Shown here: piece by piece, positions 725-62,585 of the stretch
Position numbering within the stretch: position 1 is the first letter of the stretch
Layout: every line of letters begins with the position of its first letter
Origin: Amoebophrya sp. A120
Lineage: Eukaryota; Protista; Dinoflagellata
Direction: 5' to 3'
DNA: 64,000 nucleotides
Assembly: GCA_905178155.1 (NCBI GenBank)
Contig: CAJINV010000005.1
Location: forward strand, 5,126,256-5,190,255
Position numbers and translations under genes: made by a program
Notes under the pieces: generated by a model
What the model saw: only the letters and a program-made list of their open reading frames with translations
What the model was told of the DNA's origin: nothing
Database searches by the model: none

Positions 725-3297
725 ATGGTTTTCCAAGTTGGTGACACGGTGAAGATTCACGGACTGGCGAACCGTGTGGAACTGAACGGGAGGACGGGCA
801 GAGTGGTAGAAGCCGATGATTCACCGCCTGTTTCCAACTCTGGTAACGCAGCAGCATCTCATTCGCCGGCGGGAGCTGGAGTAGGCCGTAGGGTGACTGT
901 TGCTGTGAATGCAAGTTCATCGTCGTCGAGTTCATCTGTTTCGGGTTCTGGACGAGGAACAACTGCCGCGGCGCAAGAACAGCAGCTTTTTCAGCACGTT
1001 CGGATTCGAGAGGAGAACTTAAAAGAGGTGTTTGTGCTGAATCAGAAACAGACTGATCCACTTTCTGATCCTCGTGGTCGTGGTCCTTCGCGATACCGCA
1101 GTGCTTTCGCTGGCGACAGCACGACTACAGGTCCTCGTACAGCTCCTTCGCAAGACGACGGGGGTGCAAGCGCAGGCAATTTTTTCCCTTTCGAGATGAA
1201 CTCCTCTCCGACGTCTATCTTTTCTACGCTCCTGGATCAGTTCATGCCATTCAAGTTTCTACCCGGAACTACCAATGACGATGCGCACACAGCCAGTCGT
1301 TCTGATGCAGAACAACAGCATCAAGGGACGACGAGAAGGAACGACAGAAATGGACCTCCAAGAGCCCCACCTCCCAACTCAAATCAAACCCCGCACTACA
1401 ACCATCGGAGGTTTTCCTCCCTGGCCCGGGAAAACGCCCGCGCGGAGCTGATAAAGCAAACAAAACGGATATGGGAGTGTCAGGAGTGAAATTGACAAAG
1501 TCGAAATAACTTGTAATGCATAATATCGATTCCAGTTGGAAGCCCAATTTCCAAGCGGTGCATGACAAATTTTCGGAGCACCGGAATCCAATTTGTCATG
1601 CTGTTTCGGCACAGAAGAATGCTCCCGTAGCAGCTCTATCCCAAACCCTAAATAGGCTCACAATCTGCCTCACTTGGCATCCCGGCATGACAGGCACCTC
1701 ATGCCTTGCTTTTTCTGCATGACGAATCATTTTTTCAACTTTGTCGATTTCAAACCTGACACTTCCATAACGGACCGGGTGTTTGGTGCTGATCGGGGTT
1801 TGTGTGCTCGTTTACCTTTGGTGGAATTGGGACGGAATCGTGTTGAAGCACAAGCAGATGATATTACAATGAAAAATGCCTCCTCCCCATATCAAAACGG
1901 AAATCTGTGATGCAGATTTGTGGTCACAAATCAGGTTTGTGATGCTAGAAGGCAAACGATGCGGACTGTAGTGCTGTCTAGCGTGGGGAAGCCTTGCAGC
2001 TCCAGGATGACAGGAGGCAGCTGGAAGTGGCAAGCAGCATGACAGATTACCTGCAATTTAGGCCGCAGCTTCGTCTCTTGGCCTTCTAGCAATACAAGCC
2101 GATTTGTGTACTCAAATACAGCACCACAAATTCGCGCATCTTCCGTTTCCGATATGGGGTGGGGGCTTTTTTCACTTTGATAGATGAGAGAAGAGCAAGA
2201 AAGAAGTAGATCTTCAAGGGAAATAAACTTGTACGGACGTCGGAGCAGCAGTGGTGGAAAAAATAAAGGGGGTAGTAAAAAATCATCTGCAAATGAGATA
2301 CCGGTAGAGAATCTTCGGGCACAAAAAGCTGCTGCGAAGGCCGAGGCGCTGTCCAAGATGAACCGGAGGAAAAACAGGGCTGATACAACTAGAGGAGAAC
2401 AAGACAACAGCGGAGCGGGCGCGAGCTGGGATAGTGATCATGTTGAAGTTCTTGAAGATGATGAGGAGAATGAGGAATATGTTCATGTTGAGAACAACAA
2501 GTACACCGCCAGCGCCAACCACAACGAAAAGATTCGCAGTCAAAACCGCCGCTTGGGCCGGGAGCAACGCGCTTCTTTTAGTGAAGATCCAGTGCCCGAG
2601 CGGCCGGGCGAGCAAAAGGGAACAGAGAGGACCAATGGGACGGCGCCTTTATTTTCCACCTGGTTTTTCTTTTCTGATGCAGGCACAGGCTCAGGCTCAG
2701 CCGTCAGTGATTTGTACTTCACGAAATACGAGTCGTTGATAAAGAAGTCGCTCTTCGTGCTCCTCGGGCTGTACCTGTGCTACTCGGCGAAACTGCACCA
2801 GCAGGTCTTGCAGCGGCTGAACTTTTTGCAGCTGCTGTTTTTCGTGCAGTTGCTGCTCCAATTCTTCTGGGGCACGAACAGCCTCTTCCGGTTATTACAG
2901 TGAAAAGTGCCCCCCACCCCTGACATGGCAAAAGTTTGTGATGCGAAGTTTCCACCAAATGAAAACTTTTTGCCATGCATGACAGGAGTATGAATCTTTC
3001 TGATGCCGAGTCTAGGCGTGTATCGCATCGCTTGCATGACAAGCGCCGCTCTTGCTGGGGTCTTTTGCAATACAAATTTTTGCTATTCACGATTGGAAAC
3101 CTGTGATGCTGATAGGTGCACGACGGCGAATGTTTCAGTTGGAAAGGTTTGCAATACAAATGCTCCCAAGTAGATCGAGGAGGGGGCATTTTTCATTGTA
3201 ATGCCGGTCGCTTTTTCAGAACAGCTTTGGAGGTTTTGGGAACTTCTTCCACTGGAGAAGCGCGGACTCGAGGGTGCAGTTCTTCTTTTTCCGGTGA
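725..3297 (+). CDS. Hypothetical membrane protein (~541 aa), N-terminal SH3/KOW-like motif, 3 introner introns
   Basis: ATG at 725. Removing the elements at 1470, 1862 and 2893 plus one 5-bp DR each gives one frame (KQTKR/TGCLVLIGVCVLVYLWW..KQM/REEQ..LFR/SLFQ) to TGA 3295-3297. Hydrophobic segments are present. The 3' end could continue via a GT at 3294. Confidence 0.7.
1470..1769. mobile_element. Introner family E
   Basis: TATGGGAGTGTCAGG...CCTGACACTTCCATA; DR ACGGA. Confidence 0.9.
1862..2182. mobile_element. Introner family F
   Basis: TATTACAATGAAAAATGCC...CACTTTGATA; DR GATGA. Confidence 0.9.
2893..3203. mobile_element. Introner family F
   Basis: TATTACAGTGAAAAGTGCCCCC...CATTGTAATG; DR CCGGT. 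Confidence 0.85.
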
Positions 3298-4566
3298 GAG
3301 GGAACGAAACAAGGTGGGTACGACGGGGGAAGTGGTGATGAATGCGTGGTGGCGCCGGAGGTTGATGTGCTGCTGATTAGTTCAGAAAGTAGAGAATGCA
3401 AGCACGACACGACGAGAACTCTTCTCCAGATGATCGTCGCACGACCGAAGCCGAAGATTTTTCCGAAGTATGATTGTCACTATAGCAAAAGAAAAAACAA
3501 CAGAAACCCGCATGAGAAACATCCTGAGCATGGCAAAGTTTACGGTCCTGTATGTAAGGACGTTTTTACTTAGGACAGTGCAACGGGGACCCGCAGGAGC
3601 AGCTCTCCCTTTGATTGTCAGCGGTTCCCAAGAATCAGACCTCATCCGCTTGTATGAATCGGTGTCCCTGTCGTGCAGGAGCGCTACTTGTAATTGAAGT
3701 CGGTAGCTACAACTTGTTCTTCCCTTTGGAGTTTTACTTTATTTCAAAATACAATATTCATCGGTATCTACAACTACAACTTCTACGCGTCATTTTCGTC
3801 GGTCTTTGTGTGAGTGCTACTACTTCGGTTTTTTTTCGTTTGACAAACGTCCACTTGCTTCTGCAACTCGTCCACTTCTACTACTGCTTCGATATTACAA
3901 ATTGTATCCGTCCCTCCTTTCGTCGTTCGAGCTGTCAGAAATCGTGATTGGAATAGGATCGAGATCGGTGCATCCAAAGAATAGACTTTGGCATGTTGGT
4001 GACCACGAACGTCAGTCTTAATCGGTCGGCCGCCGTGCGTTTTGGTCCGTCTCCTCGTTTCTTCATCGATATGAGTACTTAAGCTGGAGGTCGTGGTGTC
4101 GTATTAACTGCCAGAGGACTAGCTGCTGTCCGTAACACATAGCGGAAAAGGCGTAAAAACATATCCAACTTCTTTTTGCAAAATTATGTGCAACATCAAG
4201 TCATATTTGAACAGAGCTTCAATTTCTTGCGCGTCCAATTACAACCTCCCCCATCCCGATTTCTTTATTTACATAATTTTTGCGTATTTGCTGAGGCACC
4301 CCCCGCCTAGGAGATCGACACTTTACATGATTTGAGTTGTTACTTTCTGCCCCGCGGCTCGATTGATCATGAAGATCAGTGCGGCGATGGAGCAATCTTC
4401 TTCAAGAGCCGCGACCTAGTTGAACCACCAGAACAGGCCCAGGTATAATTATACTTATATAGACAAAGCGGACCGACACGACACAAGTAGGGCCACGACC
4501 TACCTGTACTTGAGGCCCACGACATTAAAATCAAAAGGCTGCTGCAGAACTTCAACTTCATCGAGG

Positions 4567-61927: not shown

Positions 61928-61983
61928 ATTTTCGTTTGCCTTTGACCAGACTCGCCTTTGACGAGTTGTTCTCCACCTGCAAA

Positions 61984-62585
61984 ATGCTGCCTTACTGGTG
62001 GAGGCGGAAGCCGTATCAAATGCAAATATGTCTGGGTCTGGAAACCTGTGATGCTGTATTGCGCATGACTGCAACGCTTGTTATGGCAGCTAAGCATGAC
62101 AAACTTTCGGAACGCTTTCTGCTGCGTGTTGCGCATGAGAAATTGCTTCTTTGCGTAACAAAGAAAGCTGCTCATTTGCTGCTCATGCAGCACAGATTTT
62201 CCGGGAATGCAAGATACGCATTTACGAGTTGCAACCTTCCAGACCCAGACATATTTGCAGTGGATAGGCCGCTCATTGCTGCCCAACTGGTGGCCACGTC
62301 CCAGATCGCAGGCGCGGCTGGGTACGAGGACGCGAGCAAGAACTTCCGCGGGGGGGGGGGCAAAACCAAAAGCCCTCCTCCTTGACCCTCAATCACGACG
62401 GCAGTAACTCCGGCGACGCCATGAACCCCGTCACGAAGGACGAGGAGTCGTCCTCTGGGACGAGCTTCATGTCGCGGGCCGCAGTTCTTAGTAACCCTCA
62501 CCTTATTAGTAGCCCTCATGCCCGCGAGCAAGCTGCAAAGAAGGCGTCTCAGTCGCTGAACAGTACTCACATACATACGCTTTGA
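61984..62585 (+). CDS. Possible small secreted protein or pseudogene (one introner, possible frameshift in a G run near 62350)
   Basis: MLPYWWRRKP/LIAAQLVATSQIAGAAGYEDASKNFRG reads across the 62014 element; the frame stops at 62385 unless the G homopolymer length is wrong. Confidence 0.3.
62014..62266. mobile_element. Introner family A
   Basis: TIR; DR AGCCG/GGCCG. Confidence 0.9.

Follow-up and report, generated by a model that had tools for sequence, protein, structure and literature searches.

The 64,000-nucleotide stretch of DNA analysed here in full (hereafter the window; positions 5,126,256 to 5,190,255 of contig CAJINV010000005.1) comes from the dinoflagellate Amoebophrya sp. A120. 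It contains an importin alpha gene, a tandem gene array with a longer paralog and several other genes, which are interrupted by short elements with terminal inverted repeats (TIRs) and flanking 5-bp direct repeats. About 87 such elements had been counted in an initial annotation, and our census gave the same total, consisting of 84 short elements, one element of 1,003 bp and two fragments (35264-35491 and 30756-30793). Elements are named below by their first position in the window.

A strict scan for TAT..ATA ends that match as TIRs at 12 or more of 25 positions and are flanked by exact 5-bp direct repeats detected 58 elements in the window and 0-2 in each of five dinucleotide shuffles. When the ends were left free, TAT..ATA was present in 54 of 100 hits, and the total number of hits per shuffle was 10-15. 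Curation by profile scan, BLAST and hand check resulted in 83 full elements of 143-337 bp, which cover 33% of the window; six profile candidates were reviewed in this step, of which 3483, 13391 and 30611 were dropped, 32354 and 58836 were re-bounded and 6348 was retained. The 84th short element (58836-59112) is additional to the curated 83. Fifteen of the 83 belong to units 2-4 of the tandem array (3,147 bp per unit), so that the number of distinct elements is 68.

Most of the 83 elements start with TAT (79) and end with ATA (78), and 65 have an exact 5-bp direct repeat. All of the 68 distinct elements start with TA and 63 of them end with TA. Their duplication length is 5 bp (exact in 50/68, with 0/68 at lengths 3, 4 and 6-9), and the profile of both ends consists of TAT, seven variable nucleotides and a run of A. 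BLAST clustering yielded 13 clusters, 10 of which have at least two members; thus, the presence of multiple TIR families is supported, but not the previous count of about nine. Elements of one family can lie in either orientation with respect to the plus-strand genes.

The elements are short, TIR-bounded, non-coding and multicopy, with a target-site duplication and empty sites, and are thus similar to miniature inverted-repeat transposable elements (MITEs), in agreement with the origin proposed for them before. Alignments within the window revealed three clean empty sites in paralogs, each with a single copy of the repeat left: element 19623 is missing near 34728, 36511 near 50302 and 51407 near 37798. 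These sites show that insertion was accompanied by a 5-bp duplication. Two further occupied/empty sites (49463 and 49816) differ from the paralog by in-frame 3 and 9 nt; compared with 36217-36290, they suggest that element traffic may leave codon-sized footprints. Approximately 4 of 70 elements lie outside coding sequence (coding sequence being 39% of the non-element DNA, with approximate gene bounds). Enrichment of introners in genes has been reported for 161 of 175 genomes (PMC9860276).

Removal from transcripts and the cut register

Transcript evidence was obtained from the contigs of four runs, which represent one sample of one study and whose RNA type was guessed. Because GT-AG introns are also missing from these contigs, the four runs behave as mRNA. 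Over 8100-23760 they provided 12 joints, 11 of which skip exactly the element plus 5 nt, and the twelfth is a GT-AG intron that holds two elements. The initial annotation had proposed precise removal at the TIR and repeat boundaries, against which transcripts that retain the elements or use nearby GT-AG sites would have spoken; neither was seen at any of the 11 element joints. In the gene at 14397-18302, joints were found for all five elements, in 1-2 runs each. Elements of the same family in opposite orientations were both removed (14782 vs 17125, and 14975 vs 21144). On the other hand, the part of the neighbouring 2,102-amino-acid gene that falls in this region (8100-13387, six elements) had neither exon cover nor a joint in any of the four runs and is uninformative on removal. 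When each element plus 5 nt was deleted in silico, a plus-strand open reading frame (ORF) of at least 150 amino acids crossed 78 of the 83 elements; for the other two frames the number was 37-53.

Two runs of raw RNA reads, X9 and X10, cover pieces of elements and no exons and are apparently derived from another strain. About 200 X9 reads over 23144-24267 and 25809-25855 match the TIR and interior of the largest family, which may be present in that strain, the reads being unspliced RNA or DNA carry-over.

The importin alpha gene was examined as the major example. As previously noted, it has 19 elements in its span, and 17 of these lie in the coding sequence; retention of any of the 17 leads to a premature stop, which agrees with the frame disruption described before. 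The model obtained after removal is an ORF without internal stop, and it follows a 3,755-nt contig of run X4 with a constant offset of -520 at 12 of 12 control points. The exon at 22300-22617 matches Pfam Arm (E=2.9e-10) and, across 106 amino acids, importin alpha structures (4tnm_A, E=6.4e-32). Removal restores the motifs FELA/WTLTN, KEAV/WVLSN and RKR/LSRPENPPI, and three GT-AG introns coexist with the elements in this gene, both in line with the initial annotation. Six of the 19 elements have a joint of their own, two lie within a GT-AG intron, one is uncovered and the removal of the remaining ten was established as a summed length over three blocks rather than from single joints. The predicted protein has long low-complexity inserts. 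Within the intron at 22618-23398, one element lies 6 nt inside the GT donor and the other duplicates the AG acceptor; nested and one-step removal would give an identical mRNA.

Where the two copies of a repeat are identical the junction is ambiguous, and copies that differ restrict the register. Four joints in two genes (elements 21486, 15538, 22045 and 23466) provided such a restriction, and 23466 alone pins the register. The only register compatible with all 11 element joints was register 4, in which the intron consists of one base of the left repeat, TAT...ATA and four bases of the right repeat (-1/+4). The former statement that deletion of an element plus one 5-bp repeat restores the frame is therefore correct in length, but the removed unit is not an exact repeat copy. 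At 23466, whose repeat copies are alike at 1/5 positions, removal was precise in 4/4 runs with no shared letters at the junction, which argues against both template switching and repeat-guided repair.

Template switching by reverse transcriptase at hairpin-flanked repeats, with the genes either dead or read in another way, was considered as a source of the joints. A hairpin with a short direct repeat is a recognised setting for it, although our search gave no supporting paper. It is nevertheless very improbable here, considering the joint 23464->23671 with zero shared letters in 4/4 runs, the agreement of all joints on one register and the truncation of importin alpha by any of 17 retained elements.

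In the pinned register, positions +1, -2 and -1 of the 68 distinct elements are unbiased, whereas all 68 have U at +2 and A at +3. For an independent test, we used loci fetched by the TIR motif of one family (151 stretches in 149 records, 487 kb). Of the 332 distinct elements in these loci, 268 had an exact repeat and 277 could be oriented by ORF or codon model; the codon model agreed with the ORF calls in 108 of 111 cases. The detector applied to these loci recovers 59 of the 83 window elements, so that degenerate copies are under-counted, and it treats both ends alike. U+2 was constant in 277/277 test elements, giving 0 exceptions in 345 overall. The mirror position of U+2 at the 3' end shows variants in 4/68 window elements and 10/277 elsewhere (14/345 together; sign test for 0 vs 10 in 277, p about 0.002). 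Variants at the other end positions of the test elements were found at +3 in 2, +4 in 6, -6 in 4 and -7 in 3. Thus, a single 5' base is constrained in a strand-specific manner, a pattern predicted neither by a symmetric stem rule nor by a DNA cutter. U+2 and A+3 are positions of the canonical 5' splice site.

The remaining end bases did not support canonical splice sites. GT/GC-AG could be read in any register in 5 of the 68 distinct elements and in the pinned register in none, in line with the earlier observation that most ends are not GT-AG. GT..AG was found in 6/277 test elements, about as expected by chance, and in 0/68 in the window, and no selection for G at +1 or for a 3' AG was found in the 68 window and 277 test elements. 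Assignment to canonical U2-type ends (GT/GC..AG) was therefore rejected; U+2 is constant and A+3 almost invariant. The A at -7, which is present in 68/68 window elements and resembles a branch point, was also dropped as an invariant candidate, being present in 274/277 elements elsewhere.

Folding, mobility and other genes of the window

The elements are predicted to fold strongly (median z of -5.0, calculated from 12 crude doublet shuffles of each element). The inner TIR is predicted to be paired in 62/68 and the terminal three pairs closed in 40/68, and complementarity falls to about 60% at TIR positions 4-7. Elements 17125 and 23466 are removed in spite of a predicted inner-TIR pairing of 0.03 and 0.0, as are 22045 (starting with TAG) and 21144 (ending with ATC), in which a terminal pair is broken. 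A purely structure-guided form of the pathway inferred in the initial annotation is thus weakened, given these two weakly paired and two broken-pair elements and the one-sided U+2.

Nearly all families share a decamer with the core TTGT[C/G/A]ATGC, which is present in 66/68 elements. The 17,124 bp of elements contain 183 occurrences, compared with 2 in 36,503 bp outside. It is found on both strands in 44/68, and the removed elements include carriers with the decamer on one strand, either one. Its presence in unrelated TIR families suggests one binding factor, either a host factor or a single transposase. Three long elements (5017-5988 of locus L072, 3862-4492 of locus L050 and 60925-61927 of the window) have inner inserts with 11-19-bp flanking duplications that contain the decamer, which would fit targeting of this motif by a second element or by recombination.

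Strong folding and a common internal motif would also be expected of ribozymes. Self-splicing, however, is hardly credible in view of 13 different sequence clusters and removal in both orientations, and Rfam gave 0 matches at gathering score over the 64 kb.

Another possibility is that the elements are excised from DNA before transcription at some life stage, in the manner of programmed internal eliminated sequences. Their DNA-transposon anatomy and a decamer lying on either strand, as would suit a double-stranded DNA site, are compatible with this, and joints in the DNA-type run were swamped by copies from elsewhere, so that empty sites could not be counted. However, DNA-type contigs with a depth of 41-49 traverse exon-element borders, one of them spanning the entire 27490 element without any difference; 23466 offers no homology to anneal, and a symmetric DNA cutter would not produce a one-sided U+2. 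No separate somatic nucleus is known in this lineage. The DNA-level branch of the former proposal is weakened by the contigs and by removal without repeat homology, and we consider it improbable. Removal at the RNA level is favoured.

No transposase domain was found in 3 window ORFs and in 13 ORFs taken from 7 long TIR pairs and 23 TIR hits without a partner in the 487-kb loci, which had been selected by the TIR of one family. The long elements of the window and the loci are non-coding, and in the search for an autonomous partner viral contigs gave no match. Integrase-like ORFs have been reported in one TIR introner family of A120 (PMC12130899). IS3EU/GingerRoot DNA transposons share TA..TA termini and encode integrase-related DDE enzymes, but their duplications are usually 6 bp (PMC10045372), compared with 5 bp here (0/68 exact at 6); they serve as a lead for the mobiliser only.

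The coordinates of genes and elements are listed in Table 1. Units 2-4 of the tandem array each differ from unit 1 by 1 base, and the array is either very recent or an assembly expansion. Within 36000-48600, the four units are followed by a partial fifth and then by the longer paralog, in which the set of elements is different. The region 33900-35500 is a copy, with about 95% identity, of the first exons of importin alpha and the sequence upstream of them; it lacks the first element and is broken off inside the second, and it is likely a pseudogene recording an empty site. In a further gene, a 44-bp direct repeat flanks an interruption of about 880 bp (30836-31803), whose longest reverse ORF has no Pfam hit. 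A Pfam scan of 28 window pieces detected only the Arm repeat above the cut-off. A short, apparently perfect palindromic repeat at 63560-63620 lies outside genes and is unrelated to the TAT families. The sole non-element similarity between the fetched loci and the window, with locus L003, is intergenic (13378-14139, 73-79% identity) and perhaps represents another dispersed repeat.

Table 1. Genes, introns and selected elements of the window.
Feature	Position	Strand	Details
Gene with three elements	728..3294	+	Elements 1470-1769, 1862-2182, 2893-3203; 540-amino-acid frame after removal
Gene with 10 elements	4420..13387	+	Elements 5456, 6348, 6885, 7324, 8318, 8758, 11154, 11519, 11949, 12629; 2,102-amino-acid frame after removal
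Gene, family unassigned	14397..18302	+	905-amino-acid stop-to-stop frame; elements 14782-14924, 14975-15228, 15538-15832, 16435-16756, 17125-17276
Element in the preceding gene	15538..15832	+	Repeat mismatch at base 4; joint 15536->15837 in 1/4 runs, depth 4.7; registers 4-5
Importin alpha	19575..28565	+	1,215 amino acids after removal of 17 coding elements and 3 GT-AG introns
First importin alpha element	19623..19838	+	No listed RNA joint; absent from the partial paralog near 34728
Three importin alpha elements	20347-20619, 20664-20877, 21144-21399	+	Joints in 4/4 runs, skip = length+5; the last ends with ATC
Element splitting RKR/LSRPENPPI	21486..21768	+	Repeat mismatch at base 5; joint 21479->21768 in 3/4 runs; registers up to 4
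Element splitting FELA/WTLTN	22045..22294	+	Starts with TAG; repeat 2/5 alike; joint 22043->22299 in 4/4 runs; registers 4-6
Canonical GT-AG intron	22618..23398	+	Contains elements 22624-22902 and 23144-23394; joint 22615->23397 in 4/4 runs
Element with degenerate repeat and weak TIR	23466..23666	+	Repeat 1/5 alike; joint 23464->23671, skip 206, 0 ambiguous letters, 4/4 runs; register 4 only
Canonical GT-AG intron	23757..23908	+	Loose end 23756 runs into next exon (3 runs); offset arithmetic
Canonical GT-AG intron	24405..24677	+	Offset arithmetic only
Ten importin alpha elements	24016..28222	+	Starts 24016, 24752, 25050, 25557, 25773, 26708, 27100, 27490, 27814, 28019
Element group	30293..33279	+	30293-30527, 31828-32089, 32354-32654, 32688-32832, 32980-33279; 3' fragment 30756-30793; frame crosses the last four
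Truncated element closing the partial importin alpha paralog	35264..35491	+	
Tandem array, four 3,147-bp units	36125..48059	+	5 elements per gene copy: 36511, 37156, 37508, 37955, 38287, then in steps of +3147
Longer paralog of the array gene	49332..54739	+	13 elements; lacks the 36511 element; 49463, 49816 and 51407 absent from the array; from empty-site alignments and frames
Gene with putative membrane-like product	55913..59922	+	Translation read by eye, no Pfam hit; elements 56026, 56542, 56934, 57618, 58244, 58534, 58836-59112, 59444
1,003-bp TIR element outside traced genes	60925..61927	.	Interior is GC-rich and encodes no recognisable protein
Element of the largest family	62014..62266	.	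Host gene untraced

Removal mechanism and relation to known introns

It may well be that these non-coding TIR elements, cut at -1/+4, are removed from pre-mRNA by a relaxed U2-type spliceosome. Under this proposal the spliceosome would read the U at +2 and gauge the 3' cut from the end of the element, with N-U-A-U-(G/C) taking the place of GU-A-(A/U)-G; the long stem would bring both element ends together and the internal decamer would recruit a host factor, while the elements would be mobilised by a DDE transposase whose gene lies elsewhere. Since the elements would be tolerated in either orientation and at any target sequence, their insertion into exons would be nearly neutral, which would explain the invasion.

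The relaxed spliceosome is favoured by the one-sided U+2, the N-U-A start in two strains whose TIRs differ, the tolerance of broken stems, a near-complete spliceosome without detectable U1, and the precedent of Fritillaria described below. Strains A120 and A25 were reported to keep 83 of 89 spliceosomal proteins, with U1 not found (Farhat et al., 2021; PMC7789003). In Table S4 of the same paper, the nine predominant non-canonical sites of A120 all start with N-T and the nine of A25 all with T-T; the A25 TIRs differ from those of A120, and the table, which may be biased by the aligner, is consistent with the proposal.

Several observations weigh against a spliceosome. The terminal intron bases are free, all 16 first/last pairs being present among the 68 elements, whereas a spliceosome requires the first and last intron bases to form a non-Watson-Crick pair (PMC13326754). 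Neither a branch-point consensus nor a pyrimidine tract was found in the last 14 positions, and over the 68 and 277 elements together the A at -7 is not a fixed branch A. The closed terminal pairs predicted in 40/68 would hide +2 to +4. The RNA evidence comes from four runs of one sample, of guessed type, in which four joints in two genes restrict the register and one of them pins it alone; in this material, consisting of contigs only, no lariat or intermediate was seen. The orientations of the 277 test elements depend on a codon model.

It is also quite possible that an endonuclease and a ligase, independent of the spliceosome, bind the base of the TIR stem and cut 1 nt before and 4 nt after the element; such a pathway has been proposed for euglenid nonconventional introns and corresponds to the RNA-level branch of the inference in the initial annotation. 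Free terminal bases, the lack of a branch consensus, strong folding and removal in both orientations would all fit such enzymes, as would the euglenid introns, which have an off-centre stem (+4,+5 with -7,-6) and form circles (PMC3935182, PMC11282704). On the other hand, elements with weak or broken stems are still removed, and the contrast between U+2 (0/345) and its mirror base (14/345) is not expected; an enzyme could read one base asymmetrically, so that this weakens the alternative only. A wider form of it can be put forward tentatively, in which Amoebophrya would carry out genome-wide mRNA splicing without the spliceosome. A factor recruited by the decamer and by the TIR stem would recognise a single U, make the cuts at -1/+4 and ligate, so that every TAT...ATA element would be removed scarlessly, whatever its orientation or sequence context. 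The evidence for the spliceosome and for a separate endonuclease and ligase is close, and the relaxed spliceosome fits at least as well as the pathway outside the spliceosome that was first suggested.

The introner system itself is already published. As far as the accessible text goes, the A120 introners (Farhat et al., 2021; PMC7789003) have TAT followed by seven variable bases and As, many families, a mean length of about 240 nt and direct repeats of 3-5 nt (5 bp in the legend of Fig. S19); they coexist with GT-AG introns, lack an internal transposase and are supported by RNA-seq. The likeness noted in the initial annotation thus extends to end signature, repeat and length: the window elements show the same end motif, a repeat that overlaps the borders with the cut inside it, and repeated families missing from RNA at non-GT-AG borders. 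In that paper the splice position is called variable and the border unknown, whereas in the window elements the TIRs determine a constant position of -1/+4. Its accessible text does not mention a one-sided U+2, homology-free removal, removal in both orientations or the decamer, although the figures may show part of the register. Other Amoebophrya strains were reported to use GT-AG (PMC12005148). Our literature search, with subscription papers outside its reach, yielded no paper that fixes the cut register or deals with branch points, lariats or a later mechanism in Amoebophrya.

Two other systems are comparable, judging from the accessible parts of the respective papers. MITE-derived introns of Fritillaria borealis are also TIR elements with target-site duplications and non-GT-AG ends that occur beside canonical introns, but their ends are mostly AG-AC or AG-AT and the spliceosome was shown to act on them (PMC13326754, PMC11282704); here, the terminal dinucleotides are free except for U+2 and the catalyst is inferred. 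Euglenid nonconventional introns share an off-centre stem that joins the ends, junction repeats and a proposed MITE origin. They differ in having a CA/TG stem at +4,+5/-7,-6, pyrimidine/purine junctions and circles (PMC3935182, PMC11282704), compared with TAT/ATA at +2 to +4/-7 to -5 and no junction preference in our elements. Assignment to the euglenid class was rejected, as the window logo has neither the CA/TG stem nor the pyrimidine/purine junction.

Four details appear to be new, namely the constant cut position of -1/+4, a junction formed without homology, the constancy of U+2 at one end only and the decamer common to the families. The register, U+2 and the free terminal bases provide exact predicted junctions for lariats or circles, and the fixed register leads to correct gene models where repeat copies differ. 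They also make it possible to distinguish sharply between a spliceosome that recognises intron ends unusually loosely and a separate enzyme for mRNA splicing; either outcome would bear on the origin of introns from transposons. Scarless removal that is independent of context and orientation would explain how a third of the window DNA came to be mobile elements inside exons.

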